Below are positions 3,915-28,858 of a stretch of 28,859 bases of DNA, piece after piece. Positions within the stretch are counted from its first letter, which is position 1. Every line of letters starts with the position of its first letter. Source of the stretch: a virus (Duplodnaviria; Caudoviricetes). The notes beneath the pieces are model-generated. The model was given only the letters and a program-made list of their open reading frames with translations, had not been told where the DNA came from and searched no databases. The position numbers and the translations under genes are program-made. Where the stretch lies: positions 1-28,859 of IMG/VR virus record IMGVR_UViG_3300028293_000022; one strand, written 5' to 3'.

Positions 3915-3918
3915 TTTA

Positions 3919-4155: not shown

Positions 4156-4182
4156 AACCCCACCCCACTGATAAAACGTTCA

Positions 4183-5118: not shown

Positions 5119-5150
5119 CGTTGTTACCTCTTTGCTAGTTAAGAGATTGC

Positions 5151-5179
5151 ATTAAAACACACCCCATTAAGTTTGTCAA
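5151..5179 (-). promoter_or_regulatory. sigma70-type promoter for the leftward early operon
   Basis: On the - strand: TTGACA (5179-5174), 17-nt spacer, TTTAAT (5156-5151), about 30 nt upstream of the first ATG. Confidence 0.7.
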
Positions 5180-5251
5180 CTACTTTCGTTAATTAATTTC
5201 ATGCATTAGGTTAGTGTGTTGACATGTCGATTCTATTGGCATAAATAGTTA

Positions 5252-5460
5252 ACGCGGATGCGCGCGCTACTATATAGGGCGACCGAGATTCAATTCCGGC
5301 ACGCGCCCGAGCCGGCAGGGGGGGACCGGGGGATCGCCGCTGGGGAGGTCATCCGGTGGGCTGTAACTTTTTCGAGTAAGCCACCAGTCGATTCCAGACC
5401 TGCGCAATATTCGAACTCAGAGGCGCGACCGGGTTGACCGGGAAGGGTAGCCCCTGTTAA
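5252..5460. other. GC-rich non-coding island with G-runs; candidate packaging/terminus or origin signal
   Basis: Clearly more GC-rich than flanks; G7, G5, G4 and G3 runs at 5318-5360; CCGGC/GCCGG hairpin at 5296-5315; lies between divergent early and late arms. Confidence 0.4.
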
Positions 5461-5512
5461 CCTGTGACCAATTCATCGTTGGCGCGATTGGTTGAAAGTA
5501 GGACAAGTATTT

Positions 5513-5523
5513 TGTGATAGGAT
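5513..5523 (+). promoter_or_regulatory. candidate extended -10 promoter inside the repeat, pointing inward (mirror copy at 28809-28819, - strand)
   Basis: TGTGaTAGGAT fits TRTGnTAnnnT; GGTGGGG RBS-like tract at the inner end of the repeat. Confidence 0.4.
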
Positions 5524-5533
5524 TAGGATTCCT

Positions 5534-5563
5534 TAAGTCTGATTATATCGATAACCAGACTTA
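5534..5563. promoter_or_regulatory. dyad in IR-L; candidate serine-recombinase crossover site or operator
   Basis: TAAGTCTGATTAT-ATCG-ATAACCAGACTTA, arms 12/13 complementary, asymmetric central TC. Confidence 0.6.
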
Positions 5564-5658
5564 TCACCGGGGTGGGGTACTTATGGACGAGGAACCCGAT
5601 GACGAATGGGATGGCGATTTGGATGAGTAAATGAATTTTCAAATCTTTGAGGTGTCAC

Positions 5659-5880
5659 TTGGATAAGAAAGAGTGGAACGAAAAAGTACACAGGTGCCCA
5701 AAAGCAGCAGAAGGCTTTGAGCCATATCACAAATGGATAGCAATCAACAAATCGATAAATCCCGGAAGTGAGTCAGTTTCAATGTTGATGTGCGGAATTT
5801 GTTTTCACGAAGTAAACATTTCAGAAGCCTTCAAACACCGAGACGTTTTCAAGACTTCACAAAATCCTGGTACTTCTTGA
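5659..5880 (+). CDS. small putative Zn-binding protein
   Basis: GAGGTG RBS then TTG at 5659; HRC...H...CGICFH. Confidence 0.55.
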   Translation: MDKKEWNEKVHRCPKAAEGFEPYHKWIAINKSINPGSESVSMLMCGICFHEVNISEAFKHRDVFKTSQNPGTS

Positions 5881-6328
5881 TTGAATCCTCTTTTTTGGCT
5901 TTTCCCTTATCGGTATTATAATATTTTTTGTAGTAATCCCATAATCCATCGATGTCAGATGCGTCAGGAATGTTACCAGGTTTACTATAATAAAAAATTC
6001 TGGTCATGGCTGTAGCAAAGTTTAAATCATAAATCATTCTTTCAAGTTCAGGAACTCGATTGCAATTAAAGTGCATACTCATTAAGGTAGCAAGTTGATT
6101 GCGATTCCGGATAAAATTTGCCCACAAATCAGAATAGGTAACAGGTTCCATTTGATAGATTCCGAGGCCCGGTCCCTTTACTTCCATAAGAAAAGTGCCG
6201 CCAAGAGATTCTGAGGCACATGTGAAAACCATTAACTCCTCGGCACCCTTCGAGTAAAGTTTGAGCTTTGATAATACTGGTTCTACAATTAAACTTCTAA
6301 ACTGGGAGCAAATAAACATATAATTCAT
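5849..6328 (-). CDS. lysozyme-like / lytic transglycosylase-family protein
   Basis: TCASESLGG (catalytic ES), GPGLGIYQMEP, ATAMTRIFY and YYKKYYNT..GK follow the lysozyme-superfamily pattern. Confidence 0.7.
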   Translation of the reverse strand: MNYMFICSQFRSLIVEPVLSKLKLYSKGAEELMVFTCASESLGGTFLMEVKGPGLGIYQMEPVTYSDLWANFIRNRNQLATLMSMHFNCNRVPELERMIYDLNFATAMTRIFYYSKPGNIPDASDIDGLWDYYKKYYNTDKGKAKKEDSIKKYQDFVKS

Positions 6329-6341
6329 CCTTAAATTAAAT

Positions 6342-6352
6342 TGTGTTATATT
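6342..6352 (+). promoter_or_regulatory. extended -10 promoter candidate for terS and the late operon
   Basis: TGTGtTATATT about 27 nt upstream of the ATG. Confidence 0.45.
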
Positions 6353-6378
6353 AAATCATATGGACAGGGATTTCATTT

Positions 6379-6960
6379 ATGACAGAGATTGATGCAAAAC
6401 GGATTTATTTGCAATTTAAAACTGGTGGCAGAAAATATAACGAAGAAATACATTGTCCCATGATACTGGAAGTAATGAACAACGAAGGCACACAGGTTGC
6501 ATTCTGCAAGAAGGCTGTTATAAGTAGTAGTGTGTTTTATGAGTGGACAAAAAAGCATAAAGTTTTTGCAGCGTGTTATGCATATGGCAAGATTCTTTCA
6601 AAGGCAAATTGGGAAGAAGAAGGAGTCAATGGTAAAGACGAGGAATTTTTTAACTTCGATCTCTGGCGTATGACGGGTGCGATGCGCTATGGTGTCGGAA
6701 AGAATCGGGTGCGATTTGGAATTGATGCGAAGGCAACACCCTACATTCAGTATCAGCAATTAGTGGAACTGGCAAACTCGGAAGAATTTAATGCTTCTGA
6801 AATTAAACAGTTGATGGAGTCGATAAACGTTGGAATCAGGGCATATGAATCCTACGAACTTCAAGGTCAGGTTTCAAAGATTCAGGAAGAAGTGAACCAG
6901 ATGGGGATCCGAAGTGCCAACAATTTTAACTCAATTGAGAAAGCTTCAAAAACAGATTAA
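6379..6960 (+). CDS. terS: terminase small subunit (N-terminal HTH type)
   Basis: GRKYNEEIHC...FC....IS...FYEW.KKH..F..CY..GK....NWEE.G resembles the HTH of phage TerS proteins. Confidence 0.65.
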   Translation: MTEIDAKRIYLQFKTGGRKYNEEIHCPMILEVMNNEGTQVAFCKKAVISSSVFYEWTKKHKVFAACYAYGKILSKANWEEEGVNGKDEEFFNFDLWRMTGAMRYGVGKNRVRFGIDAKATPYIQYQQLVELANSEEFNASEIKQLMESINVGIRAYESYELQGQVSKIQEEVNQMGIRSANNFNSIEKASKTD

Positions 6961-7048
6961 AATACCATATGTTATCCAGTTTGTAGAACGGGAAGTTTTA
7001 GAGACAGAGTATCAGGATAAAGTAATTTATGTACACATTTGGATTTGA
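6914..7048 (+). CDS. possible 44-aa protein (not in the ORF track)
   Basis: Hand-translated MPTILTQLRKLQKQIKIPYVIQFVEREVLETEYQDKVIYVHIWI; GGGGA upstream of GTG; fills the gap. Confidence 0.45.
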   Translation: MPTILTQLRKLQKQIKIPYVIQFVEREVLETEYQDKVIYVHIWI

Positions 7049-7063
7049 TAGGAGATCAAACGA

Positions 7064-7354
7064 ATGAGTAAATTATCTACTTGGTTGCACAGAACCGAGA
7101 AAAAAATATCAAAGGCCATTCCACACCAACATTCGGCTGAAAGACGTGCTGCGAATCAGGCGGTTGCCGAACAGATTCAATATTATCAAGACGCAAAAAA
7201 AGAAATGACAGAAGAAAAAAAACGCGTTGAAGGTGAGCGCGAGCGCGAGGAAGACAAAATCGGCAAGAAGAAAATTCGCGCCGCACGTCGGGCTTATCGT
7301 GCACCGGGCTTTATGGAAGAAGCAAATCCAGCATTAAGTGATACATTGGGTTAA
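7064..7354 (+). CDS. small virion-associated protein upstream of portal
   Basis: AGGAG RBS; charged coiled coil; ends SDTLG; position like T7 gp6.7/7.3. Confidence 0.6.
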   Translation: MSKLSTWLHRTEKKISKAIPHQHSAERRAANQAVAEQIQYYQDAKKEMTEEKKRVEGEREREEDKIGKKKIRAARRAYRAPGFMEEANPALSDTLG

Positions 7355-7372
7355 TCAGGGCAGGGAAAGGTT

Positions 7373-7630
7373 ATGGCACTACTCACAAGTACTTTGATTG
7401 GAAAAAATCCTTTATCTCAAATGAAACCTATGGCAAATAATAATAATCTGCCAGCTCTTGGTGAAAATACGTCTGTACCGAATATTGTTTACAATCCCAC
7501 TCAGCGTACTGACAATCAGATGAAAACCACGAAACAGATATTGAATTATACAGCAGCAAAATCCATGGCTGAGCAGGGACGAACGGATATGCGCGGCAGC
7601 ATGGTAGGATATTCCGATACACTGGGTTAA
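7373..7630 (+). CDS. small virion-associated protein upstream of portal
   Basis: Ends SDTLG like its neighbour; immediately before the portal gene. Confidence 0.6.
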   Translation: MALLTSTLIGKNPLSQMKPMANNNNLPALGENTSVPNIVYNPTQRTDNQMKTTKQILNYTAAKSMAEQGRTDMRGSMVGYSDTLG

Positions 7631-7641
7631 AAGGGAATTAA

Positions 7642-9246
7642 ATGAAAATTGAGGACATGGTAGACGAATTTCTGGTTCCTCAGAAACTTTGGGATATGTT
7701 CAAAAAGAGAAGGGACAATGCCCAGACTGTAGCATGGCTGTGGGCGGCTCTCCATGAGGCTTGCTATTATTACGCTGTCCCAAACAGAAACAGATTCTAT
7801 CGTCCGAAAGAGCAACAGGGAGAATTCAAGGCAACACGTATCTATGATACGACAGCCGTTGAAGCCACAAAAACATTTGTTTCAAAACTTCACGATGCAA
7901 TGACACCTCCGCAGGTTCAATGGGGTTATCTTGATATCGATGAGTCTTTTGACAGCGAGGAAGACATAGACCAGAATGCAGCGCAGGAAATGCTTGATAA
8001 TTATATGCGCCGGCTATTTGAATATATTCATGAGTCAAATTTTGATGTAGTCATAAACGAATGCTATTTTGATTTGGCAATAGGAACAAGCTGCTTAGTG
8101 ATAAACGGATTTACCGACAAGCAGCCATTATTATTCTCATCTGTACCAATGGACAAGCTTGCAATTGAAGAAGCTATGACGGGGCGTGTTGAATCCTGGT
8201 ACAGATATTGGGAAAATGTAAAGATTAATGAAATACAAATACGCTGGAAAAATGCAATCCTCACGCCTGAAATGATGATGATGCTCGTTGATAATCCGGA
8301 TGCTGTAACTCAAATGCTTTACGAGGGCGTGATGTATATGCCTCATAGAAAAAAACCCTATCTGTATATGGTAGGAACACTGGATACGCCAATTCTATGC
8401 GAGGAATATGAATCAAATCCCGGGATTGTCTGGCGATTCCAGAAAATAAATTCAGAAGTGTTTGGACGCGGGCCGGTTATGGACGCGCTTCCATCCATTA
8501 TTTCTTTGAATGAATTGGCAAGAATAGAATTAGCTTCAGCCAATTTAAACGTATTTAAACCATACATGGGATTTTCAGATGCCGTCTTTAATCCTCATAC
8601 TTTTAAGCTTGAGCCTTTTACAGTCATACCAATCGCCCCTATTGGCACTGGGGGCAGCCCTCCTCTCATACCTTTGCCTGATAGTTCAAATCCGCAATTC
8701 GCCCAGCTTACAATTCAGGATTTGCGGATTCAGATTAAAACGCTTTTGTTCAACGATGTTAATCCAAATGAAAGTGTGCAACCAGAAACCGCCGCCGCTG
8801 TAATGATTCAGCAGCAAAATTTGGCACAAAGAATCGGGCCTTTATTCTCGCGATTACAGCAAGAATTTTTGGAGCCAGTGATAGCACGATGTTCTTACAT
8901 TCTGGATAAAATGGGAATTTTGCCAAAGCCAGAGATGAAAGGAATTAAGGTTAATTTCAGATATCGTTCACCCTTGGCGTTAACAAAAGCACAGCAGGAT
9001 ATATCTCGCTTTACTCAATATTACCAATTGATGCAGGGTATCTTTGGCCCGGGGCCAGCCTTGATGTTTATCAATCCCGGATTGGCCCCGTACCTTATAG
9101 CAGAACAAATGCAAGTCGATCCTCGTTATTTGAATTCACCGCAAGAAGTACAGTCAGCTTCGCAGGATGCTCAAAATATGCAGGATGATGCTATGAGTGC
9201 AGCGCAAGAAGGACAACAATCACCACAAGGACAAGCTTTACAATGA
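7642..9246 (+). CDS. portal protein (T7 gp8-like head-tail connector)
   Basis: 534 aa; IYDTTAVEA, DLAIGTSC, VWRF....EVFGRGP.MDALP, ETAAAV, IGPLFSRLQQEFLEP, YRSPLA and a Q-rich tail. Confidence 0.92.
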   Translation: MKIEDMVDEFLVPQKLWDMFKKRRDNAQTVAWLWAALHEACYYYAVPNRNRFYRPKEQQGEFKATRIYDTTAVEATKTFVSKLHDAMTPPQVQWGYLDIDESFDSEEDIDQNAAQEMLDNYMRRLFEYIHESNFDVVINECYFDLAIGTSCLVINGFTDKQPLLFSSVPMDKLAIEEAMTGRVESWYRYWENVKINEIQIRWKNAILTPEMMMMLVDNPDAVTQMLYEGVMYMPHRKKPYLYMVGTLDTPILCEEYESNPGIVWRFQKINSEVFGRGPVMDALPSIISLNELARIELASANLNVFKPYMGFSDAVFNPHTFKLEPFTVIPIAPIGTGGSPPLIPLPDSSNPQFAQLTIQDLRIQIKTLLFNDVNPNESVQPETAAAVMIQQQNLAQRIGPLFSRLQQEFLEPVIARCSYILDKMGILPKPEMKGIKVNFRYRSPLALTKAQQDISRFTQYYQLMQGIFGPGPALMFINPGLAPYLIAEQMQVDPRYLNSPQEVQSASQDAQNMQDDAMSAAQEGQQSPQGQALQ

Positions 9247-9563
9247 GAGAAGAAGAAAACCCATATCTACAGCAGGAAAATTATTTTGAAGGCTATCAGA
9301 AAAAAATTGAAGAACTTAAGCAACGGCCTGATATTGTTGAGCTTGATAAGCTTTGTTATCTGGTATTCGCGACGGAAGACGGCAAAAAATTGCTTGAAGT
9401 GTTTGTCGAGCGATACCTGTTGCCTGGATTCGTTAATCCTGGAGGCGAAAATCCCGGGATGGCAGCATTGTATTATGAAGGATTCAAAGAGGGTTTCAGA
9501 TTGATTCGAGGGAGTATCAAGGCCCATGAACAACGTATTGAAGCGGAGAAAAAATCAACATGA
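9243..9563 (+). CDS. conserved small protein between portal and scaffold (Bbp19-like)
   Basis: VFATEDGKKLL...YYEG pattern and position; ATGA overlaps on both sides. Confidence 0.6.
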   Translation: MREEENPYLQQENYFEGYQKKIEELKQRPDIVELDKLCYLVFATEDGKKLLEVFVERYLLPGFVNPGGENPGMAALYYEGFKEGFRLIRGSIKAHEQRIEAEKKST

Positions 9564-10267
9564 GTTTATTAGATGAAGGCACTACAACCACACCAGATTC
9601 AACTGATGAAAATCCGGGAGAAACTACAAACAATGAAGGAGCAGCATGGCACTGGGATGACAACACACCCGGACAGGGAGACAGACCAGAATGGTTGCAA
9701 CCAAAATTCAAATCAGTTGCGGAAGCCGCGAAAAGCTTCAATGAGCTAGAGAAGCTCAAAGGTTCAGCTCCACAGGAATATGACTTATCAAAGGGAGAGG
9801 CATGGATTGAACCGGCCTATGAACCTTTTCAGGAAATGCTGGACTTAGCCAAAAGCAAACATGTGCCTCAAGAGGTAATGGATAAAATTCTCGATAGTGT
9901 CGGTTCCTATCTTGATGAATTCAAAACTGACATGGCAGAAGAAAAAACCAAGCTTGGAGAGAAAGCTACAGAGCGTTTACAGATATTAAACAATTGGGCA
10001 AAATCAAACCTTTCACAAAAGGCTTACAATGCGTTGACAACGGGCATGAGAACTGCCGAACAAATTGAAGCTTTAGAAGAAATACGTAGCAAAATGCTAT
10101 CAAATAATACGATGGTTCCGGGAGCAAATAACAGCGTTGCCTCTGGGAACATGACGATTGAAGAATATCGTTCGGAATTGAATGCCAATTATACCAAATT
10201 TAAAACAGATCCGGCTTATCGGAAAGAGATGAACCGAAAACTGGAATCAATTGTGGGAAGTAATTAA
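9560..10267 (+). CDS. capsid scaffolding protein
   Basis: Acidic disordered N-terminus, RPEWL.PKFKS...AKSF.ELEK, helical body, DPAYRK C-terminus; precedes the capsid gene. Confidence 0.85.
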   Translation: MSLLDEGTTTTPDSTDENPGETTNNEGAAWHWDDNTPGQGDRPEWLQPKFKSVAEAAKSFNELEKLKGSAPQEYDLSKGEAWIEPAYEPFQEMLDLAKSKHVPQEVMDKILDSVGSYLDEFKTDMAEEKTKLGEKATERLQILNNWAKSNLSQKAYNALTTGMRTAEQIEALEEIRSKMLSNNTMVPGANNSVASGNMTIEEYRSELNANYTKFKTDPAYRKEMNRKLESIVGSN

Positions 10268-10285
10268 TCTATCATGAGGATGGGC

Positions 10286-10314
10286 TTTACATATTCAATA
10301 TTGTTGATTATATT
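10286..10314 (+). promoter_or_regulatory. sigma70-type promoter for the capsid gene
   Basis: TTTACA (10286-91), 17-nt spacer, TATATT (10309-14). Confidence 0.6.
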
Positions 10315-10329
10315 AGAGTCAATACGAAC

Positions 10330-10431
10330 AGGACAACTTTCACAAAGGCCCGAGAGGATAACCTTACAAATGTGATAGCCCTTAAACGTAATTGAGTCGT
10401 TTTGCCGATATCGGTAAGGCGTTATTAATTA
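10330..10431 (+). ncRNA. candidate structured cis-regulatory leader RNA of the capsid mRNA
   Basis: Nested stems with two C/AYAA internal loops and a GAGA tetraloop (10330-10382), then a long hairpin (10389-10431) ending just before the RBS. Confidence 0.55.
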
Positions 10432-10447
10432 TTTGAGAGGGATTATC

Positions 10448-11278
10448 ATGTCATTGTCACTTACTGCCGTCCAACAAACAGATTTCGATGAATTGGTAAA
10501 AGCAGAATACCGTTCCAAGGGTTTTTTACTGCGCGATTCAGTTCGATTAAAAAATGATGTTATTGGTGCCTACGAACAGTTTCGCAAGGTTGACCAAGTA
10601 ATATCCGTACCAACAGCCTATTTGGCCGCTGTAACAATTCAGGATCCAGATTACACCAAAGTCACTTGTACAATTCAAAAGTATACGACCCCAACAGCTG
10701 TCGATACTGTGCAAGAGCTAACTGTAAACTTTGATGCCAAGATGGAAAATGCCATGCTTGTCGGACAAGGCATGGGTCGACGTTCGGATCAGATAATCAT
10801 TGATGCTTTAGCCGCGGGTCCCGGCACTACCATTGTTGATGGTGGAACAAACTTTAACTATCTGAAATTCACAGAAGTTTATGAAAACTTCGAGAATAAC
10901 GCCGTACCTAAAGGTGAACGATGGATTGCTCTAAGTGCATCCAACATTCGATCCTTGATGCAGGATGACCAATTCGTATCAACCTTCTATACAGAAAACA
11001 GAATGCTGGATAGAGGTTGGGTACTTGATTATTTGGGTATTAATCTCGTAACCATTCCGCAGATGACTGAAGGCGGATTACCACAAACTGGCAATATTCA
11101 AACGGCTCTTGCATGGCACAAGATGTCAACTGGTATGGCTATTGGGCATGATTTCAGAACTGAAATTAACTATATCCCCTTAAATACATCCTGGCTTGTA
11201 AACGGAATTTTCTCGGCAGGTGCGGTCGTTATTGATCCACGAGGTGTGATAGCAATCAACAATGACGTATCTGTCTAA
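10448..11278 (+). CDS. major capsid protein (podovirus type)
   Basis: GAGAGG RBS then ATG 10448; FDELVKAEY, GMGRRSDQIIIDAL, N.VP..ER, YLGINLV and GAVVID.RGV motifs. Confidence 0.9.
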   Translation: MSLSLTAVQQTDFDELVKAEYRSKGFLLRDSVRLKNDVIGAYEQFRKVDQVISVPTAYLAAVTIQDPDYTKVTCTIQKYTTPTAVDTVQELTVNFDAKMENAMLVGQGMGRRSDQIIIDALAAGPGTTIVDGGTNFNYLKFTEVYENFENNAVPKGERWIALSASNIRSLMQDDQFVSTFYTENRMLDRGWVLDYLGINLVTIPQMTEGGLPQTGNIQTALAWHKMSTGMAIGHDFRTEINYIPLNTSWLVNGIFSAGAVVIDPRGVIAINNDVSV

Positions 11279-11295
11279 TTTAAGGAGAATTTAAA

Positions 11296-12129
11296 ATGGC
11301 ATTTGAACCTTTACGTTTTGTACGAACTACACTGGCCTTTAACTCTGGACAGATTAGTACAACTTTTAACCCAAACACACCTACCGTTATTGAAGGTGGC
11401 CCAGCAATTTTCACTTATGCGTCAGCAGATGACGCCATAGCGACAATTGGTGGTGCAAATTACTTCGCAGCTGTCTGCTATATGCTTGCTGTGAACGACC
11501 TGATTTTCTGTACAGGTTCCGATTCTTCTGTAATCTATCAGGTTGCAACTGTTGACAGGGATGCAGGCACAATTACAGTTGTATCCTATACAGCAGCCGG
11601 TACCGTGGGGACAGCCAATATTACCAACTTGGCAGTTACAACGGCGAAATTGGCTGACTTGAACGTGACAACAGGCAAGTTAGCAGATGCCGCTGTGACT
11701 TCAGCCAAAGTTAGTCCCCTGTTGATTCAATACACAACGGTGGCCATAACTGCGGCCCAGTTCAATGGCATGTATGCAGCTCCAAAATTGTTGGTAGCCG
11801 CAGCAGGGGCTAATACGTTAATTGTACCCATTCAAGTGCAATTACTCATGACCTATGTTTCTGCCAACTATGCCGCTGGTGGCGTGGCAGCAGTTCAATG
11901 GGATAGCACAGCAAATGGCGCGGGTGTAATCGCATCTACAACCCTGTCAGCCGCCACATTCCAGGCAGCAGCAAGTACCGGGTTTGTATTTAACCCTGGT
12001 GTAGTTCCAGAGACATTTACCACGACCGTCAACAAGGGACTGTATCTCAGTAATATATCTGGCGCGTTTACCACCGGGGATTCAACCTTCGTGGCTCATG
12101 TTTGGTATCGTGTAATACCAACTGTGTAA
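11296..12129 (+). CDS. capsid decoration / head-fibre-like structural protein
   Basis: AAGGAG RBS; Ala/Thr-rich; YASADDAIATI...NYF N-terminal domain; 10-aa VT.AKLAD repeats. Confidence 0.6.
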   Translation: MAFEPLRFVRTTLAFNSGQISTTFNPNTPTVIEGGPAIFTYASADDAIATIGGANYFAAVCYMLAVNDLIFCTGSDSSVIYQVATVDRDAGTITVVSYTAAGTVGTANITNLAVTTAKLADLNVTTGKLADAAVTSAKVSPLLIQYTTVAITAAQFNGMYAAPKLLVAAAGANTLIVPIQVQLLMTYVSANYAAGGVAAVQWDSTANGAGVIASTTLSAATFQAAASTGFVFNPGVVPETFTTTVNKGLYLSNISGAFTTGDSTFVAHVWYRVIPTV

Positions 12130-12138
12130 GGATGCACA

Positions 12139-12729
12139 ATGGCCGAGACAAAGGAATCGATAGTAAGTAATGCAATCACTTTGCTCGGCCATGCTCCAAT
12201 TTTAAGTTTTGAAGGCGGGGATCAAATGGTTGTGGCAGCGGAGCAAGCCTTCGATCTGCTATATCCATCCGTGTTAGCTGAGAACAACTGGCGATTCGCA
12301 GCTCAAATTCAGCAATTGTCTGCATCAATTGAAGTACCACCAAATCCTTGGAAAACAATTTATTTACTGCCAGCTGGATGGCTTAAAACTATTCAGGTTT
12401 ATCCGTTAATTTATGTCTGGGATATTTATGAGAATTCTAAAATATATGCTCAATTTCAGGGTGAGTTCTGGATGGAATACATTTTTCAACCTGATATTAG
12501 CAAGTTACCTTCTCATTTTGTTAAGTATTTTGTTTATGAAATTGCTGCATATCTTGCCTTAAGCAGTGCACAAAGACCTGACTTCTATGCTCCATTGGAA
12601 GCAAAGCGAATTGCATCCTATGCAATGTGTGCCGCTGTTGAAGCACAGAATAGACCGCAGTTTACGCAAGCAGTATTCCCGGTACTGAATCAGCGCAATA
12701 GAGGTACGATTATCGGTAATCAGATATGA
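12139..12729 (+). CDS. tail tubular protein A / adaptor (T7 gp11-like)
   Basis: IVSNAITLLG..PI.SF, WRFA, YLLP, LPSHF...F.Y.IA..LA; size and position. Confidence 0.85.
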   Translation: MAETKESIVSNAITLLGHAPILSFEGGDQMVVAAEQAFDLLYPSVLAENNWRFAAQIQQLSASIEVPPNPWKTIYLLPAGWLKTIQVYPLIYVWDIYENSKIYAQFQGEFWMEYIFQPDISKLPSHFVKYFVYEIAAYLALSSAQRPDFYAPLEAKRIASYAMCAAVEAQNRPQFTQAVFPVLNQRNRGTIIGNQI

Positions 12730-15275: not shown

Positions 15276-15290
15276 AAAGGAGTTTAAAGC

Positions 15291-21200: not shown

Positions 21201-22053
21201 TGCAAATCAGCGTGTAACAGCCGGAATCATGCAATCAAAAATCATGCGTCATATGTATGATTTTAAAAATGGAACTTTATCAAAAACAGATGAACTTGGA
21301 CTTTTGCAATATGGATTAGACCCAAAAATTTGGTCTGACAGGTTTATAAAATCATTTGAAGACGGTTCAGGTTGGAAAACCAAATCAGGAGCCTATCAAT
21401 CAAAGTACTGGGAATGGGCTGATAATGAAGCCGTATCCAGAATGGCTATGTCAATACGCCGAGGTGTCAATGACACTATCGTCCAAAGAGGGCTTTTTAC
21501 ATCTCCTTTTTGGACAAATAATCCAGTTCTTGGCATGATTTTCATGTTCCATGGCTGGGGATTTGCAGCATTCAATAAGTACACTGTACCCATGATGCAA
21601 CGTCCAGATGCTTATAAATTACAAGGTATTATCTTCATGCTGGGTTTGGGTGCTATGATTGACCCATTAAGGAAACTTGCCAATGGCAAAAAGGCTGATG
21701 TCGATAATGACGACACATGGTTTGGTAAGGCATTTGAGACAGTTTCTAATTCAGGACTTTTAGGCCATACACCAGATTTGCTTCAAACCATGAACAAGTT
21801 TTTAGGTGGTCAATTATTGCCGAAAACCACTGAAAAATTTCAGGGTTGGAATAAATGGAGTGTACTGGGTCCGGGCGCCGGTATTGCAGATGATATAGCA
21901 ACAATACTTTCCCATTGTATGGGGCCAGATAAAAAATTTACTACAAGTGACGCAAAGAAGTCTATTCGACTGGTTCCATTAACTGGAAGTCTTGCAACCA
22001 GAGGATTATTAAACCAATGGGCTGAATCATTGGGATTGCCTGATAGACAATAG
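18253..22053 (+). CDS. large internal virion/ejection protein (T7 gp16-like)
   Basis: 1266 aa, helical, with Gly/Ala hydrophobic segments; last gene before the tail fibre. Confidence 0.65.
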   Translation: MSINPEFKPIEDFYSNEQKPLSMPELPAEAYRDDPGTMLMPSEAPVLPQKEARKKPGFFATMGHAFSEYNEFAQLGRYVNREAQFVHPAEDDVPDDFNPDDIKNLEGYPPNYWDWISEAQSPNEIRARQAYVMDKVQEKESYDNGSFAASLIGGLGAAILSPSSYLPFAAGVKYMGLAENVIKNTMKAAPSLALQTVAHEGFMQATDAGGNLEDFAINSLRDAAFGAAFIAGGAGLGVAYRGGKLWNVRKAANFNYEGVEFNHVIDPKTNELTGEIKASAAPGFSLSAAKVEQAQQFADAAMHQGFLFGIPGVSKLAGNSILGSPIVKGLSNRFETIRGLTDRLATHSIITKGTMEGKARADSAEDIFSAINAGSVDFNLRYRSHFLEENGIEGGYNVRNATKALSQRALKGQRTTWEDFNYKVVDATITQEFNYSKSINAASKAYTEYTDAIYKELQQVRGFDPEILKPINAHGYFTQNMDNMALVKYAPKFREVVANEFKRQDAILNDITRPLEEAQAFLDQLETHKLSGEAYDRSAANEIKEARERVNVARREIERQARDEEDVAILLDDRNFVTMDNAQKIRDLHAPINEAQKLVNIQKGDITKLKSKLSSAKSSAKKNVTKEATLRNIDKMKTLEKEIEAAESNLRELSNNVDELTDELHQRAHKGEIDQKLFTKDQNIINFRNPDEWARFRKPFANDNERIAAAEAQRNLYLNNTTEQIQQSLLGSMMPSLFANPLKKRTFPIPAKVLNDARFIASDVPKAASSYARALGRHIALGKVFKDINMFEGEMGPIGMARVLGEERAKIEKGIDENKHLTEEQRGKERIKLDNDFRKATQFMKNMLDAFMGRSNASASTLRVTRAIKNFAAATKLGGVPIAQITDTGAIVLKHGLWPYLRDGLKPMIQTLNGYVKSDLSEIQRRNSADALLSLQHMENGYSTKYSDNLSVGDVPIATHLESALEKVGHISGNFYGTNFIENANQRVTAGIMQSKIMRHMYDFKNGTLSKTDELGLLQYGLDPKIWSDRFIKSFEDGSGWKTKSGAYQSKYWEWADNEAVSRMAMSIRRGVNDTIVQRGLFTSPFWTNNPVLGMIFMFHGWGFAAFNKYTVPMMQRPDAYKLQGIIFMLGLGAMIDPLRKLANGKKADVDNDDTWFGKAFETVSNSGLLGHTPDLLQTMNKFLGGQLLPKTTEKFQGWNKWSVLGPGAGIADDIATILSHCMGPDKKFTTSDAKKSIRLVPLTGSLATRGLLNQWAESLGLPDRQ

Positions 22054-22079
22054 GACAGGGGTACTCAGGGAGATGAGAA

Positions 22080-24842
22080 ATGACCCAGGTGATTATAGAT
22101 GACATCATTCCACGTACCCAGCTCGTGGCAACAAGTGGACAAACAGTTTTCAATACAAACTGGACAGCCGACGTTGCCTCAGACATTCTCGTTTATGCGA
22201 GAAGTGTTGGTATTGAGCCTGATGATTCTACACAACTTGTAAGTGATGTTGATTACAATGTGACATTCATAGGTGGTAGTCAGACAGTACGTGTCACTTT
22301 TCTCGTAGGCCGCGTTATTAATGATGTTATTACCATTGTTCGGAATACCCCAGCCGAAAGATTGAATCTCTATATCAATACTAATTTCACGCCCATCATG
22401 CTTAATCAGGACTTTGGGATATTAACCCTCGTCGACCAGCAAGCTCAAATGTACGATGTTGTGGTTAATCCGGGATATAACGTATCTGCAACTATAGACC
22501 CTATTGTCGATACAGTATTACCAATTCTTGATGAACTTCAAGTCTGGGTAATGAATTACGGAAGAACTGGCATTGTAGCTATGCCTTATAATTCAGGAGG
22601 AGGTGGAGGAGGTGCCCCTGCCGATGCAACCTATATTCTCCAGCATGCTGATGCTATCTTGCCTAATGCCCAGAACCTTGATGCATTGGCTACAGGCTTT
22701 ATGTATAACACAAATTTAACAGGTGTTATAGGAAGCCGGGTATTAACTGGAACCTCAAATCAGATAGATATTGCCAATGGTTCAGGTGCGGCTGGCAATC
22801 CCACCTTAACAATTTCATCAACATTGAATTTGCCTGGCACCTTTTCAATTCAGTCATCTACCGTCATTAATCAAATTATTAATGACCCGACAATGGCAGC
22901 TTCAACAACTTCTAATTTGAGCACAAGTGCAGCTCTTAAATCCTATATTGATTCTTTGGTTGTGGGCTTAAGCGTAAAAGGCTCTTGCGTTGCTGGTACC
23001 ACCACAGCATTAACAGCAAACTATTCCAATGGCGCGGCTGGCGTCGGGGCTTCCCTTACAAATGCTACTACGCAAGCTACATTTACCATTGATGGTGTGA
23101 TCCCTTCTGTAGGTCAGCGTGTATTAATCAAAAATCAGGCTTCAAGTTTCCAGAATGGAATTTACACAGTGACCGATGCAGGTAGCGGTTCAACCAACTG
23201 GGTTCTTACCCGTGCTACAGACTACGATACCACGGCTGAAATTCATCCAGGGGATTTGGTAATCCTGACGGGTGGCACAACACAAAATCAATCCTCATGG
23301 ATTGAAACGGCAACGGTAAATACCATCGGCACCGATGCTATAACCTTTGTTCAATTTACTGCAAGTTTACCAGTTAACGTCGCAAGCGGAGGAACCGGAC
23401 GTACAACCTTCACCGCTTACGCCCCAATTGTCGGTGGCACCACAACGACTGGATCACTTCAACAGGTAACCACAGGCTTAAGTACATCCAATGCCCCCAT
23501 GGTTTCCCAAGGAGCCTCTGCGGTTCCGATATTCTCTACAACACCTTACCTGACATCGGTTAACGATATCAGCGGTAATATAAATGCTGCCTTCGTTTCT
23601 GGCGGGGCACTTTCAGTCAATTACGTTCAATTCGTAAGTGGACTTACAGGAGCTGCGGCTGCATTACAGGCCAATGGTTCAGATACAGATGTCGGTCTTA
23701 CAATTGCGACGAAAAATGCTGGAGCCATGGGCTTTCAGACTACTGCAACCTCAAATCAGTATGTATTTTATTCAGGTGCTGCTTATCAACACTCCAGCAT
23801 TATGTCATTCCCGTCTACGGCGGTAGCAAGAACCTACACTTGGCCTGACGCAACTGGAACGGTCGCATTAACCTCCGGAGCTTCCGGAATTATTAACTCA
23901 GGATTAATCAATCAACTAGCATATTATGCTGCCGCTGGCACAACATTGTCCGGGTTGGCAACGGCAAATAGTGGGGTCCTGATCACTGATGGTTCAGGTG
24001 TTCCATCTATCAGTACCACGTTGCCGAATATGCATATTGGAACCCCTATTGACGGCGTTTTAACTAACTGTACTGGATTGCCATTAACTACGGGGGTTAC
24101 TGGAAATCTTGGAGTATCACACCTGAATTCAGGAACAGCCGCCTCATCTTCAACATTCTGGCGCGGTGATGGGACTTGGGCCTCTCCTACTGGCACAGGG
24201 TTCTTAAGCATGACTGTTCAGGTATTCACAGGTAATGGAACCTATACCCCTACCGCTGGTATGCTGTACTGCACACTTGAAGTTGTTGGAGGCGGTGGGG
24301 CTGGTGGCGGGGCCGCTGGAGGCGCGGGAGTTTTTGCCGCAGGCGGTGGAGGCGGAGGCGGGGGCTATTCGCGAAAAACTGTTCCAGCCGCTACAATCGG
24401 TGGTTCTCAAACAGTTACCATTGGTGCCGGGGGAACAGCCGGGACTACCGGAAATCACCCGGGCAATGCAGGCGGAACAACTTCTGTTGGTTCAATTGTA
24501 ACGGCCACCGGTGGAGGAGGTGGAGGCGGCTCCGGGGCTGGCGGGGCAACGGGACAAGCATTAGGCGGCCCTGGGGTGGGAGGAGTTGGAGGTTCTGGAG
24601 ATTTTAATGCCAATGGTGGCGCAGGAATATGGGGTTTTTCACTTGGTGGTGTAAATGGATTGACAGGTAAAGGCGGAGATTCTATTTTTGGTGGTGGTGC
24701 CGTGCAAAATGCAGGATCAACCGGAGCAACCGGTACCACATACGGTGGAGGCGGTGCTGGTGGTGGTGTGGCTAACTCAGCCGGCACCGTTCAAGGTGGA
24801 CCGGGAGCCGCAGGCATAGCCATAATCACAGAATTTATTTAA
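22080..24842 (+). CDS. tail fibre / receptor-binding protein with Gly-rich C-terminal domain
   Basis: gp17-like N-terminal adaptor ([23 protein letters not shown]...QQ); [20 protein letters not shown] module; [10 protein letters not shown]; [13 protein letters not shown]...VVGGGGAGG domain. Confidence 0.85.
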
Positions 24843-24854
24843 AAGGAGTAAAAA

Positions 24855-25133
24855 TTGGACAAAGCAGATATTGAAAAAAGATTAAATACAATCGTAACTG
24901 AAATGACACAAATGAGAAATAATTATACAATGCTTGAAGGGCATTTAAACGAATGCCGACACTGGCTTGTGGAGATTGAAAAAAAGGAGAGTGCAAATGG
25001 CGAAATTAACAACGAAGGAACGGAACAAAATTCCGAGCAAGGACTTTGCGGAACCGAAGGAGAGGAAATACCCGATGGAGGACCGGAGCCACGCAGCGAA
25101 TGCGAAAGCCCGTGCCCAGCAACAGTACAATAA
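24855..25133 (+). CDS. small coiled-coil protein after the tail fibre (possible fibre chaperone); 3' half overlaps the next gene
   Basis: AAGGAG then TTG start; heptad-like N-terminal half. Confidence 0.55.
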   Translation: MDKADIEKRLNTIVTEMTQMRNNYTMLEGHLNECRHWLVEIEKKESANGEINNEGTEQNSEQGLCGTEGEEIPDGGPEPRSECESPCPATVQ

Positions 25134-25197
25134 AGGCAACCTTTCCAAATCTGAATTGAACAAAATTGATGCTAAAGCTAACAAGAAACTTAAATAA
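24997..25197 (+). CDS. small basic protein (DUF6582-like)
   Basis: AAGGAG RBS; MAKLTTKERNKIPSKDFA.PKERKYPM.D.SHAANA.ARA pattern. Confidence 0.75.
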   Translation: MAKLTTKERNKIPSKDFAEPKERKYPMEDRSHAANAKARAQQQYNKGNLSKSELNKIDAKANKKLK

Positions 25198-25209
25198 AAA
25201 GGAATTAAA

Positions 25210-25332
25210 ATGAAAAAGGATGATATGGCTCAAGACAAAAAACTTGTTAAAAAGGAAATTTCTTCTTACGCCAAGAAGGACAAGAAGGAGGACATGAAGA
25301 TGATGAAACAAATGAAGGGTCGCAAGAAATAA
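25210..25332 (+). CDS. 40-aa Lys/Met-rich protein (not in the ORF track)
   Basis: Hand-translated MKKDDMAQDKKLVKKEISSYAKKDKKEDMKMMKQMKGRKK; AAGGA RBS. Confidence 0.65.
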   Translation: MKKDDMAQDKKLVKKEISSYAKKDKKEDMKMMKQMKGRKK

Positions 25333-25342
25333 GGGGATTAAT

Positions 25343-25474
25343 ATGCCTTTTAAAAGCAAAGCACAAGCACGTTTTATGTTTTCCCAAAAACCAGAACTTG
25401 CTCAGGAGTTTGCCGACAAAACAAAAAGCATTAAAAAATTGCCTGAGAGAGTAAAAAAAAGGAGCAAGAAATGA
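25343..25474 (+). CDS. 43-aa basic protein of the phage MPFKSKAQ type (not in the ORF track)
   Basis: Hand-translated MPFKSKAQARFMFSQKPELAQEFADKTKSIKKLPERVKKRSKK; AAGGGG RBS. Confidence 0.75.
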   Translation: MPFKSKAQARFMFSQKPELAQEFADKTKSIKKLPERVKKRSKK

Positions 25475-25650
25475 AAGGACGCGATTTTAGCGATACTTCA
25501 CCTGTTCGATGTTCACCCACGCTTGTGGATGACAGGGTTCAATACGAGCCGAACTATGATGCCAAGACGCAAACGGGTGTTGAATCTGCCACAATAAAGG
25601 TTGGCAAGAAATGCCCACCGCAATCCAATCAAAAGCCATACAGGCGTTAA
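25471..25650 (+). CDS. 59-aa hypothetical protein (not in the ORF track)
   Basis: MKGRDFSDTSPVRCSPTLVDD...KPYRR; AAGGAG RBS and ATGA overlap. Confidence 0.6.
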   Translation: MKGRDFSDTSPVRCSPTLVDDRVQYEPNYDAKTQTGVESATIKVGKKCPPQSNQKPYRR

Positions 25651-25660
25651 TATTTTTTGA

Positions 25661-26011
25661 ATGACTTTAACGTTTGAATTGCCATGGCCTCCAACTGCCA
25701 ATACCTATTGGCGTAGAAATGGGGATCGTTATTTTATTTCTAAATCCGGCATAGCATATCGGAGAAGTGTTTATTTTTTATGCCGTCCTTTTCAGGGATT
25801 TTTCTCCTCAAATCATAGCCTGAAAATTAACATCCATGCCTATCCACCAGACAAACGCAAACGTGATTTGGATAATCTTGGAAAGGCTTGTATGGATGCT
25901 ATGCAATATGCAAAAGTTTATGACGATGATTCACAAATTGATGAACTTACATTCAAACGTATGCCTGAAAATCTGGACAAGATAGTTGTAACTATTGAGA
26001 GAATCCAATAG
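25661..26011 (+). CDS. rusA: RusA Holliday junction resolvase
   Basis: LPWPPTANTYWR, PPDKRKRDLDNLGK..DAM...VYDDDSQID catalytic motifs. Confidence 0.95.
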   Translation: MTLTFELPWPPTANTYWRRNGDRYFISKSGIAYRRSVYFLCRPFQGFFSSNHSLKINIHAYPPDKRKRDLDNLGKACMDAMQYAKVYDDDSQIDELTFKRMPENLDKIVVTIERIQ

Positions 26012-27327
26012 TGTATATAAAAGTGCCCTATGGAATGATCCCCCGGCATTACCAAGTTGAATTTTTACAAGCAGTAAGACAGGGCAAGAACGTTTGCTCT
26101 GTGATACATAGAAGGGCTGGAAAAGACGTAATCTCTGTTCAAGCCTGGTTGCTTCGGGCTTTGACACGCGTTGGTACACACGTTTACCTTTTCCCTCTCA
26201 TTCAACAAGCACGTGCTGTAATCTGGAAAGGCATGGATTTTGATGGCCGTCCTTTCCTTGCGGCCATTCCTGATGCTCTCGTATCCAAAAAGAACGAAGC
26301 CAGAATGGAAATTGAATTGATAAACGGTTCAAGGATGGTGCTGGGTGGTAGTAATAATTATGATGGACTTATGGGCACCAATCCCGTTACCATCATTTAC
26401 TCTGAATTTTCTTTACACAATCCTCTTGCACGTTCATATCTTAACCCCATTCTTGTTCAAAATCGTGGCATTGAAATTTTCCAGTTTACCCCTCGTGGCA
26501 AAAATCATGGGTGGGAAGTTTTGGACACGATTCGTGATAACCCGCATTATTTCGTTCAGCATTTAACAGTAGAGCAAACATTCCTCGATGAGGCCCGTAC
26601 TCAGCGCGTAATTCCAGCGGTCTATATTGAACAGGCACGTGCCATGGGAATGTCTGAAGAACATATCAGGCAGGAGTTTTATTGTGATTTTGATGTCGGA
26701 AACATCGGCGCATACTTCACTCGTGAAATGTCTGATATGGAACAGGAAGGGCGTATTACTTTCCTGAAACCAAATCCACGCCTTCCACTACACACGGTCT
26801 GGGATTTGGGCGGAACTGATGCGACTGCTTGCTGGCTTTTCCAGCTTGAAGGGAAATATATAAATTTGCTCCATTTGGTGCATGATTCAGGCTATGGTCT
26901 TAAATGGTATCTTGATAAGGTAGAACAAATTCGCCAATCTTTTGGCTGTAAATGGGGACAACACTTCATGCCGCACGACGTAAAACAAGCCCACCAAGGC
27001 TGGGAGCAAGCAGAATCAAGGCTTATGATTGCTCGTCAACATGGCTGGTTTTTTCAAGTAACTCCAAAAGTAAACTTTGAAGATGGTCTGGAAGCGATGA
27101 GATATATTTTTCCAAAGATTCGTATAGACAAAGGTAATTGCCAGATAGGAATTCGGGCAATTCGAGAATATCAACGTCAGTGGGATGAGCAGCGGGCATG
27201 CTATCTGAAGAAGCCTCTGGATAATTGGGCAACTCATATCGTGGACACAATCCGATATCTCGCTGTTAATTTTCGCAGACTTTATGATACCCCGCAAAAT
27301 ATCATAACGTATACAACCACGGTATAG
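26011..27327 (+). CDS. terL: terminase large subunit
   Basis: PRHYQ adenine motif, HRRAGKD Walker A, IIYSE Walker B variant, TPRGKNH, QEFYCDF, nuclease WDLG...D, PHD, H.VD..RY. Confidence 0.93.
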   Translation: MYIKVPYGMIPRHYQVEFLQAVRQGKNVCSVIHRRAGKDVISVQAWLLRALTRVGTHVYLFPLIQQARAVIWKGMDFDGRPFLAAIPDALVSKKNEARMEIELINGSRMVLGGSNNYDGLMGTNPVTIIYSEFSLHNPLARSYLNPILVQNRGIEIFQFTPRGKNHGWEVLDTIRDNPHYFVQHLTVEQTFLDEARTQRVIPAVYIEQARAMGMSEEHIRQEFYCDFDVGNIGAYFTREMSDMEQEGRITFLKPNPRLPLHTVWDLGGTDATACWLFQLEGKYINLLHLVHDSGYGLKWYLDKVEQIRQSFGCKWGQHFMPHDVKQAHQGWEQAESRLMIARQHGWFFQVTPKVNFEDGLEAMRYIFPKIRIDKGNCQIGIRAIREYQRQWDEQRACYLKKPLDNWATHIVDTIRYLAVNFRRLYDTPQNIITYTTTV

Positions 27328-27352
27328 TGTGCTATAATATTTTTGTGCTATA
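27328..27352 (+). promoter_or_regulatory. extended -10 promoter with a TGTGCTATA direct repeat
   Basis: TGTGcTATAAT at 27328-27338; TGTGCTATA repeated at 27344-27352. Confidence 0.55.
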
Positions 27353-27391
27353 TGATTTATAATTTATCAATAGCGCCTTTAGGAGTTCAAT

Positions 27392-27718
27392 ATGAGCCGA
27401 TTTATATTGAAAGAAGATATAGAATGTATTGAATGTAATCTTCACATTCTTGTCCAACAAGGAGAAATGATAATGACTGCTATTAGCGATTTTGCTGCAA
27501 AACAGAATGCTTTTAATGACAGAATGGATGCCGCCATTGGTGATTTGCAAGGTGATGTTCAAAATCTTAATGATCAAATCACCCAATTAAAAAATAACGG
27601 TGCCATTACCCCAGAAGATCAAGCCTCACTTGATGCGCTTCAGACTCGTGCTTCCAGTATTGCTGACAAGCTGGATGCACTCGATGCTTTAACTCCTCCG
27701 GCAGTTCCTGCTGGCTAA
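27392..27718 (+). CDS. coiled-coil protein; alternative internal start at 27473
   Basis: AGGAG before 27392 and AAGGAG before 27473; heptad repeats; Pro-rich end. Confidence 0.65.
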   Translation: MSRFILKEDIECIECNLHILVQQGEMIMTAISDFAAKQNAFNDRMDAAIGDLQGDVQNLNDQITQLKNNGAITPEDQASLDALQTRASSIADKLDALDALTPPAVPAG

Positions 27719-27722
27719 TGTT

Positions 27723-27759
27723 AAGTTTCCCCTCGATCTCCGGGGGGAACTTTTTATTT
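27723..27759 (+). terminator. intrinsic terminator
   Basis: AAGTTTCCCCTCG-ATCTC-CGGGGGGAACTT hairpin followed by a T tract. Confidence 0.75.
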
Positions 27760-27772
27760 ATGGAGGATTACG

Positions 27773-28186
27773 ATGCCTTCTTTCAGTAAGAATTCTTTAG
27801 AACATTTAGCGACTTGTCATCCTGATTTGCAAACCTTATTCAATGAAGTCATCAAATATTTTGACTGCACAGTAACGGAGGGCTTTCGGGACAAAGCCGC
27901 TCAAGATGAAGCCTATGCGACTGGGCACAGCAAAGTAAAATGGCCAAATGGGAAACACAATCATAATCCTTCCTTGGCAGCCGATGTTTATCCCTACCCA
28001 ATTGATTTTAATAATACAAAACTTGCTTTATGGTTTGGAGGCTTTGTGCAGGGTATGGCTATAATGCTAAAAGAACAAGGTAAAATCACTCATGATATCC
28101 GCTGGGGCGGTGCCTGGAATGGCTTAGGCAAATTGAATACAAGCGGGATGCTCGATGATACAGGACATTTTGAAATTCAAGCTTAA
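27773..28186 (+). CDS. endolysin, M15 family L-alanyl-D-glutamate peptidase (T5/Ply500-like)
   Basis: FSKNS...L..CHPDLQ, EGFR...Q, KH....SLAADV, IRWGG.W, D.GHFE with Zn ligands H, D, H. Confidence 0.9.
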   Translation: MPSFSKNSLEHLATCHPDLQTLFNEVIKYFDCTVTEGFRDKAAQDEAYATGHSKVKWPNGKHNHNPSLAADVYPYPIDFNNTKLALWFGGFVQGMAIMLKEQGKITHDIRWGGAWNGLGKLNTSGMLDDTGHFEIQA

Positions 28187-28195
28187 GGAAAAGTC

Positions 28196-28543
28196 ATGGA
28201 TATTGAAAAGATAATTATTGCAGCAATCAATCCGGGATTTGCTTTAATTGGAATGATGTTCGCTGGTGTCATGTCTTATTTAAGCATGAGAATCAATTCA
28301 AAAATGGATGATGCCAAAGTTGTGCAGGATGCTACGCATGATTTGGTAAATCATAATTTGGGAGTTCAATTGAAATTGGTATCCGATCTTAGTAGACGAA
28401 TTGCTGAGCTTACTAAAACTCCTTCGGATATTGCCGTTGCTACTGAAGCATTGCGTATTTATCAGGATCATGTCAGAAAACAGAATTTCCTGGATGCTCA
28501 ACACTTTTCAACTGGTACTGATATTCCGCGCTCAGAATCGTAA
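28196..28543 (+). CDS. membrane protein next to the endolysin; putative holin or spanin-like
   Basis: One N-terminal hydrophobic segment (GFALIGMMFAGVMSYL) plus a helical soluble part. Confidence 0.45.
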   Translation: MDIEKIIIAAINPGFALIGMMFAGVMSYLSMRINSKMDDAKVVQDATHDLVNHNLGVQLKLVSDLSRRIAELTKTPSDIAVATEALRIYQDHVRKQNFLDAQHFSTGTDIPRSES

Positions 28544-28752
28544 TCAGGTTTTTTTGTATTAGAACTATTTATTGCCTTTAATAAGAATGAAATCAACTCT
28601 TTTATTTCTTCGTTATCTAATCGTGCAGTTGGGTAAATTCCTGCTCTACCTAGAATAATTTTATGGTCCTCAATGATAGACCCATCTACGTACATTAAAA
28701 CTATTTCGTTCTGATATTTTTCCGGACTAAATTTAAAACCAACTGTAAGCAT
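28498..28752 (-). CDS. hypothetical protein starting at the inner edge of IR-R
   Basis: ATG at 28752 directly after the repeat's GGTGGGG tract; frame also open from GTG 28818 inside the repeat. Confidence 0.5.
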   Translation of the reverse strand: MLTVGFKFSPEKYQNEIVLMYVDGSIIEDHKIILGRAGIYPTARLDNEEIKELISFLLKAINSSNTKKPDYDSERGISVPVEKC

Positions 28753-28858
28753 TACCCCACCCCGGTGATAAGTCTGGTTATCGATATAATCAGACTTAAG
28801 GAATCCTAATCCTATCACAAAATACTTGTCCTACTTTCAACCAATCGCGCCAACGATG
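28753..28858 (-). repeat. right copy of the perfect 106-bp inverted repeat (IR-R); dyad at 28769-28798
   Basis: Exact reverse complement of 5474-5579. Confidence 0.97.

Follow-up and report, generated by a model that had tools for sequence, protein, structure and literature searches.

A tailed soil phage (Duplodnaviria; Caudoviricetes), represented by the IMG/VR virus record IMGVR_UViG_3300028293_000022, carries its late genes between two inverted copies of a long repeat, and the same layout is conserved across a family of related phages. The window analyzed here, that is the whole stretch of 28,859 nucleotides of this record, reads E-R-L-R': one arm of an early segment (E), a repeat unit of 1,429 bp (R), a late segment of 23,173 bp (L), and the start of the inverted copy (R'). 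L is thus a large segment placed between long inverted repeats, as in the segment isomerism known for inverted-repeat-flanked genomes. Judging from the lengths of the arms, the complete genome is probably near 35 kb. We propose, at a probability of about one half, that R is an inverted control segment holding the packaging cut site, and that the virion DNA is linear and herpesvirus-like, its halves flipping by recombination through the repeat. Isomerism of phage segments flanked by inverted repeats is already in print; the layout described here is real, and both larger and more widespread than first noted.

Results

The repeat unit is longer than its visible copy

A first-pass annotation of this DNA had reported a perfect inverted repeat of 106 bp. 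The pair itself is confirmed by comparison within the window, where 5474-5579 and 28753-28858 are exact reverse complements of each other and no second repeat of at least 20 nt exists. Its length had to be corrected: the 106 bp are the tip, truncated by assembly, of a unit that spans 4151-5579. Part of the window DNA is present in 15 public runs, all of them consulted as Logan contigs and without an RNA dataset among them. The runs X1-X6 and X8 were mapped onto the window, X1 and X2 being possible sources of it, while X3-X6 are marked as other samples. In X1 and in X2, 4151-5579 forms one single contig of 1,429 nt, with a depth of 20.5 in X1 (flanks 11.6-12.6) and of 17.9 in X2 (flanks 8.0-9.3); X3 and X4 show the same rise in depth. 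The unit branches four ways: at 4151 a second arm joins as loose contig ends in X1-X4, and at 5579 the far end of the late module branches off in X1, X2 and X4. The outer edge is confirmed by L143, a second assembly of this phage: it reaches R through arm B, the opposite early arm, continues into the start of the late segment and matches the window at 99.97% from 4151 onward. Past 28858, the contigs of X1, X5 and X6 run on into the repeat, so that the last base of the window is an edge error; X8 has no coverage there. These branches at the repeat ends support the earlier suspicion that the assembly had broken at a branch. On the other side, a contig of X2 extends 2,667 nt beyond position 1.

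Could the repeat be an artefact of assembly or amplification, or could E and L be separate segments or phages that share R? The right copy does touch a contig end, and all data are short-read assemblies. An artefact would not account, however, for a depth that is double rather than fourfold or single, for arms A and B and L being equally deep in several runs, for the continuity of R across the motif described below in X1 and X2, or for 16 records in which the layout recurs with repeats that differ in sequence. We consider this explanation hardly credible. A transposon-like element of 23 kb with terminal repeats was also rejected, because the repeat is 1.4 kb long and holds early genes.

Both orientation paths occur among the assemblies. 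The arm with the resolvase gene lies on the side of the putative small terminase subunit in the window, L144 and L150, and on the terminase side in L130, L147 and L152, but the path taken through a repeat of this length is arbitrary and we do not count it as evidence. A GC-rich island, previously placed outside the repeat, lies within R together with a DnaJ-domain gene, which is therefore duplicated. In two distant relatives (G009 and G016, 50% identity) a DnaJ-domain gene is likewise found inside or across the edge of R, early and duplicated.

The layout is shared by a phage family

Relatives were found in viral contigs through the gene upstream of the portal gene (54 loci) and through the terminase (26 loci), and longer related records, chosen by length, were rebuilt or fetched. 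Inverted repeats are present at the ends of L in 16 of the 23 related records that hold both the portal end and the terminase; the remaining seven begin or break off within L or at its border. In all eight records whose early arm is complete, the sequence folds back at either end of E, as it does at the ends of L, which is the two-segment arrangement of a class E herpesvirus genome. Records that show both edges of R give lengths of 487, 539, 817, 984, 1,170 and 1,193 bp, with about 497 bp in G001; the total genome comes to about 32-36 kb in the six records with a measurable R. R sequences barely align between phages, and a clade-wide layout thus goes together with diverged repeats. The genome-scale arrangement claimed in the first-pass annotation accordingly holds for the family as a whole. 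A circular member with a single R was neither found among the records examined nor excluded. Three candidates, G011 and G032 with direct terminal repeats and G030, are not members of the family.

The family is large. A search with the capsid protein gave 656 proteins at an E value of 1e-30 or better; among the best 120 homologues, 29 lie on contigs of at least 20 kb, 27 of these 29 on contigs whose length of 20-25.5 kb matches that of L, and no contig exceeds 33 kb. Genomes of the family assemble as a late contig of 21-25 kb and a separate early contig, or seem complete while lacking one R, and as a result catalogues misreport their size and ends. Among 921 terminase matches, no cultured phage exceeds 37% identity. 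Literature searches, in which subscription journals were thinly covered, returned no description of this phage family and no report of a phage with a cut site inside an internal inverted repeat. Among 185,579 genomes, the one match is a 25-kb contig (L123, in an assembled bin), which we do not take to indicate the host.

A motif facing L and a promoter facing E

What do repeats that barely align have in common? Over 36 distinct copies, a motif consensus emerges in which G tracts are followed by TCC/GGT, AA and CCAG, spaced at constant distances. With a profile derived from ten of the repeats, each collapsed record yields a single motif. Upstream of the portal gene it is on the plus strand, downstream of the terminase gene on the minus strand, and it hence always faces L. 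Scanning viral contigs with the right half of the motif yielded 29 stretches. TCC, which was not part of the search pattern, precedes GGT in 10 of 10 stretches from the family and in 0 of 19 others. One relative, G031, was found through the motif alone and shows the predicted layout.

Two contig ends provide a direct, if weak, hint at a cut within this motif. One contig of X4 stops precisely at 5354, and one of X5 starts at the equivalent of 5355, together marking the center of CC/GG; X3 breaks across the motif site (5372/5344). A fixed genome end at 5354/5355 has about even odds. Pairs of repeats were also compared for mosaicism around the site. Among 6 pairs more than 80% alike on one side, three are much more alike on the left, two are more alike on the right and one is even; only in L007/L137 does the switch occur at the motif site itself, with 7 differences in 400 positions to its left (98% alike) and dense differences from -1 to +123. 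The stretch from motif to dyad (see below) appears as a swapped or hypervariable patch in L007 versus L137 and in L135 versus L142, whose repeats are otherwise 95-99% identical.

R furthermore carries a sigma70-type promoter that faces E. Of 35 distinct repeats, 29 have such a promoter (at least 10/12 matches) at a distance of 115-200 nt from the motif, compared with 4, 4 and 1 of 35 for the other three combinations of strand and side and 6.5% in shuffled sequences. A standard promoter scan missed it because that scan demands an A at position 2 of the -10 box. In 13 dyad-free relatives, R takes in the 3' end (the last codons) of the terminase gene, and the order in R' is terminase end, motif, early promoter, early genes. 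This is the order expected at the end-to-end junction of a T7-like concatemer, and with the terminase end included one copy of R sits where such a junction would be. In G016/G017 (L201:3345-3509), G005 and G008, an inverted, non-coding copy of as much as about 165 nt from the terminase 3' end lies upstream of the late genes; plastid repeat borders, with their pseudogene fragments, offer an analogy. A replication origin within R was considered and is less likely, given that E of the relatives carries lambda O/P-like initiator genes and that the origin lies inside the O gene in lambda.

Recombination genes and a model for R

The early arm and the late segment together encode candidate enzymes for recombination through R. 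An exonuclease VIII-like nuclease is present in 8 of 10 early arms, and the family of a 290-aa protein encoded next to it in 7 of 10; RecT (phrog_561) stands in for the latter in two relatives. The 290-aa protein has no sequence match in the PDB and no named family in the Atlas. In its predicted structure (predicted local distance difference test score, pLDDT, 66), the N-terminal part resembles Rad52/Sak/Mgm101 and the C-terminal part resembles the Red-beta C-terminal domain, with middling VIA-align Z scores of 5.3-5.8; the best Foldseek row is the Sak protein of phage 80a, at an E value of 0.039. Going by this predicted fold, the product of 903-1775 is likely an annealase. RusA has moved between the early and late segments in the course of the family's history.

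How might these elements act together? The scheme that we favor is conditional in every step past the layout. The terminase would cut one copy of R at CC/GG and package into L, pass the inverted copy, and stop at the next direct copy, yielding Rb-L-R'-E-Ra, a molecule that has no terminal redundancy and whose last-packaged end carries the early promoter. In the infected cell, exonuclease and annealase would pair both half-repeat ends with the intact internal copy, and RusA would resolve the recombination junctions. Such pairing would rebuild the junction and keep the copies identical, with inversion of L and E as a by-product. Both copies of R carry the same promoter and ribosome site, so that a flip changes the start of no gene; it would alter which early arm follows the promoter that enters first.

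The motif might instead be a pac site for headful packaging, with circularly permuted genomes, R duplicating pac and early promoter, and isomers arising through recombination of concatemers. The motif is indeed asymmetric and directional, only the L-side end at 5355 would be required, and a route of this kind is proposed, in the accessible text, for the A-1(L) cyanophages (10.64898/2026.02.14.705889). A one-sided series start does not predict, however, the X4 end at the complementary base 5354, and genome size is narrow in the six measured records, although this is compatible with either mode. We judge headful packaging to be quite unlikely.

Several observations weigh against a fixed cut and a flipping genome. 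The contigs of X1 and X2 cross the site unbroken, which an intact internal copy would permit; X6 starts at 5383, and exact ends are seen in only 2 of 6 runs. X4 and X5, which break exactly at CC/GG, are low-depth runs, and coverage drop-out over the G tracts could concentrate breaks at this position. No contig start at CC/GG was found among the 29 matches of the viral-contig scan or among the listed contig starts. The terminus observation is post hoc and depends on two contig ends. Identity of the copies was measured only over overlaps of 24-234 nt and is otherwise deduced from their collapse into one contig, and the two copies differ at 3 places each in G022 and G031. Nor is there a read or long molecule with two orientations, the data being short-read contigs of arbitrary assembled orientation.

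The last two points would also suit a static R, a duplication of promoter and packaging sequences with one orientation per phage and occasional gene conversion, since inversion is not seen directly and small differences between copies exist. Yet the R sequences of relatives can no longer be aligned, while within each phage the copies collapse into one, and inverted repeats of 1.4 kb should recombine in a phage equipped with exonuclease, annealase and RusA. A static duplication therefore strikes us as improbable.

A serine recombinase and a dyad mark one clade

Is the layout the work of the recombinase encoded in the early arm? The first-pass annotation had pointed to a resolvase/invertase gene outside the late module, and this gene does encode an intact small serine recombinase: the catalytic Ser9, the DRLAR motif and the C-terminal helix-turn-helix (HTH) are all in place, and its best PDB match is the DNA invertase 4m6f (E value 8e-27). 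About 85 close homologues (59-81% identity) were found, mostly on contigs below 12 kb. The further proposal, that a 106-bp res-type site driven by this enzyme underlies the layout, does not explain it. The repeat is 1.43 kb long, and none of the eight relatives whose early arm is complete encodes the resolvase, which is therefore not what maintains the repeat. A tyrosine integrase (PF00589), such as an integrating temperate phage would encode, was found in 0 of 9 records tested, part of the early arm of the present phage lying outside the window. PF00239 occurs in 2 of 29 records and in 1 of 21 further records, the latter not a family member. Asked whether they keep both features, relatives thus keep the inverted repeat, while the recombinase is confined to one clade. 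Relatives with the recombinase and no repeat had been named as the finding that would speak against the proposal, and the opposite, repeats without the recombinase, was encountered.

Within this clade, an imperfect dyad (5534-5563) lies in the 106-bp tip, followed by a G-rich tract resembling a ribosome-binding site and by a start codon. Exact search of viral contigs for the window's 28-bp dyad gave 0 matches, whereas pattern scans returned 8 viral and 24 metagenome loci. Every non-self dyad locus that reaches the position of the resolvase gene encodes it (7/7: L130, L135, L139, L144, L147, L150 and L152). Five further loci, with 0.95-2.0 kb on the early side, have no resolvase match and are too short or show the other arm; the rest lack an early arm. 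Resolvase and dyad together mark one clade, with a support of 96/100, and seven rows lack both. In this clade R has its inner edge just behind the dyad, at a distance of 319-1,429 nt beyond the terminase gene; elsewhere this edge lies inside the terminase gene.

These observations would fit a recombinase that binds the dyad in both repeats and inverts the 23-kb L segment site-specifically, possibly in order to redirect replication forks or to resolve replication products. Besides the co-occurrence, the clade support, the intact catalytic residues, the many close homologues and an inner edge that tracks the dyad, the 20-bp core of the dyad shares its starting register with the Gin core listed in Table 1 of PMC3985619. 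But one clade amounts to one evolutionary event, so that the co-occurrence is not independent, and the layout exists without the recombinase in the 8 other complete early arms. At the center of the dyad, 4-5 bases vary freely among 13 variants, as they would in an operator, and five dyad loci are undecided. Resolvase res/six sites comprise crossover and accessory sites over about 86-120 bp; in the dyad region, 90% conservation spans only about 45 bp (5534-5579), and an upstream TGATAG-like half site is less constant. Fis-dependent invertases are marked by basic residues at Hin positions 47, 48 and 51 and by Gln151/Arg154/Leu155 (PMC3798978, in the text available). Aligned with 4m6f, the recombinase has D, K, G and M, T, Y at the Fis-contact positions, where the marks of Fis dependence are mostly absent. 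We regard site-specific inversion as unlikely. By sequence, the dyad could serve either as a crossover site or as an operator lying over an inward promoter. In our favored reading the resolvase is a later addition in one clade and probably binds the inner-edge dyad.

The outer edge of R (4151-4180, minus strand) reads TTATCA-nn-GGGGTGGGGT plus a start codon, the same arrangement as at the inner edge (5561-5579); among the dyad loci checked, it is seen in this phage only. G007, which lacks the resolvase, has a single dyad half near the outer edge of R, which may be due to chance.

Gene content of the window

Family matches bear out the virion, packaging and lysis genes that the first-pass annotation had placed between the repeat copies (Table 1). 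A minus-strand gene at 5849-6328 (phrog_3108, function not known) stands head to head with the putative small terminase gene in nearly every relative. Directly behind the left repeat copy begins a strongly acidic ORF (open reading frame) of 15 codons (5583-5630). Behind the tail fibre gene (24967-25650) lie several short, highly charged small ORFs, one with a DUF6582 match; similar low-complexity small genes, together with RusA, are found in the early arms of distant relatives (G001, G008, G010). Rfam gave 0 matches.

Table 1. Features of the window, with coordinates, strand and the basis of each assignment.
Feature	Position	Strand	Basis or remark
Early (E) segment, arm A	1..4150		branch at 4151; remaining E and arm B outside the window
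Exonuclease VIII-like PD-(D/E)xK nuclease	6..617	+	phrog_412, E value 2e-50; 5' part outside the window
Likely single-strand annealing protein, 290 aa	903..1775	+	fold comparison of predicted model; unrelated rows reach equal Z
Hairpin where two convergent early transcription units meet	1817..1839		read from the sequence
Small serine recombinase (resolvase/invertase family)	1825..2391	-	PF00239, E value 2.6e-41
Repeat unit R, first copy, 1,429 bp	4151..5579		one contig, about 2x depth, branches at both ends
DnaJ-domain gene	4275..4784	-	PF00226; inside R
Sigma70-type promoter facing E	5151..5179	-	11/12 match
Family-wide motif (G tracts, TCC/GGT...AAcT...CCAG), candidate packaging/terminus site	5310..5390	+	predicted cut 5354/5355
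Imperfect dyad and TTATCA, candidate resolvase site/operator	5534..5566		13-16 nt from R inner edge
Late (L) segment, 23,173 bp, structural/packaging/lysis genes	5580..28752	+	gene matches
HTH protein upstream of portal	6379..6960	+	terminase small subunit by position only; Atlas 0.83-0.88 to HTH clusters, a lead only
Portal / head-tail connector	7642..9246	+	PF12236, phrog_332
Major capsid protein	10433..11278	+	PF19821, phrog_3437
Podovirus-type tail, internal virion and tail-fibre genes	12139..24842	+	phrog_394, 376, 342, 863
RusA Holliday-junction resolvase	25661..26011	+	PF05866
Terminase large subunit	26011..27327	+	phrog_2; 30-36% identity to annotated terminases
Endolysin	27773..28186	+	phrog_465
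84-aa ORF, start codon immediately after R'	28498..28752	-	no family match
R', second, inverted copy	28753..28858		exact reverse complement; ended by contig end after 106 bp

Discussion

Taken furthest, our findings would describe a large uncultured podovirus family with a herpesvirus-type genome. A blunt terminase cut would fall within an inverted repeat, the internal copy would take the place of terminal redundancy in rejoining the ends, and isomers would differ in the early arm that enters first, perhaps as a hedge against host defences; one clade would in addition have acquired a serine recombinase that flips the 23-kb module at a site on the inner edge of the repeat. In this full form the proposal is tentative and, on the whole, doubtful.

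Segment isomers have long been known as a trait of herpesviruses and plastids. How does the present layout compare with these? The class E genome of human cytomegalovirus (HCMV) is written ab-UL-b'a'c'-US-ca (PMC8111061, accessible part). There, as here, two unique segments are flanked by inverted repeats. In the herpesvirus, terminal sequences recur internally in inverted form, as we predict here, and isomers arise by recombination between repeats. The herpesvirus, in contrast, infects animals and has its a sequence directly repeated at both ends, whereas the cut predicted here leaves no redundancy. The likeness is one of layout.

Small serine recombinases with a pseudo-symmetric site in inverted repeats are familiar from Gin, Hin and Cin and from beta and Sin (PMC3798978, PMC3985619, text in part). 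Fis-dependent invertases bind and cut inverted crossover sites of 26 bp, and the dyad of the window fits such a site in size and register, by sequence comparison, with a variable center. Gin, Hin and Cin flip 1-4 kb to switch expression, however, while here a flip alters no gene start and the Fis-contact residues are mostly absent. In the tailed halovirus phiH1, an invertible module of 11 kb, the L-region, is flanked by repeats (PMC6210493, accessible part). Those repeats are copies of an insertion sequence on one or both sides, and the module, unlike the late segment studied here, carries genes for replication and can be released as a plasmid.

Closer parallels come from other tailed phages, for which isomers flanked by inverted repeats were detected by polymerase chain reaction (PCR), with no recombinase named in the accessible text (10.64898/2026.02.14.705889, 10.64898/2026.10.21.760668). 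The Burkholderia jumbo phage Matilda has bidirectional terminal segments and four possible isomers, for which a homologous 'flip-flop' is proposed (10.64898/2026.10.21.760668). As described there, Matilda shares with our phage segments bracketed by long inverted repeats; its genome is linear with physical ends at repeats, both of which we predict here. It differs in its size of 267 kb, its three parts and its two different repeats (1.5 and 18 kb) at two ends, as opposed to two parts and one repeat, of which we predict one copy to be divided between the two ends and the other to stay intact in the interior. The Anabaena cyanophages A-1(L) and N1 carry a segment of about 30 kb between inverted repeats of 400-700 nt, and both isomers were seen by PCR (10.64898/2026.02.14.705889). 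From what is accessible of that preprint, the A-1(L) group resembles our family in being tailed phages with a clade-wide segment between inverted repeats that diverge from phage to phage, and with no dedicated recombinase named. Its genomes are about 70 kb and are described as headful-packaged and circularly permuted, and no motif is common to all repeats. The family described here, in contrast, has podovirus-type genomes of 32-36 kb divided into early and late segments, an invariant motif and promoter, and one clade with a serine recombinase and a candidate site. In their accessible text, these two 2026 preprints on segment isomers of tailed phages leave the mechanism open; a small genome, hundreds of relatives, an exact predicted cut, candidate enzymes and a contrast between clades make the upkeep and flipping of the repeat directly testable in the present family.

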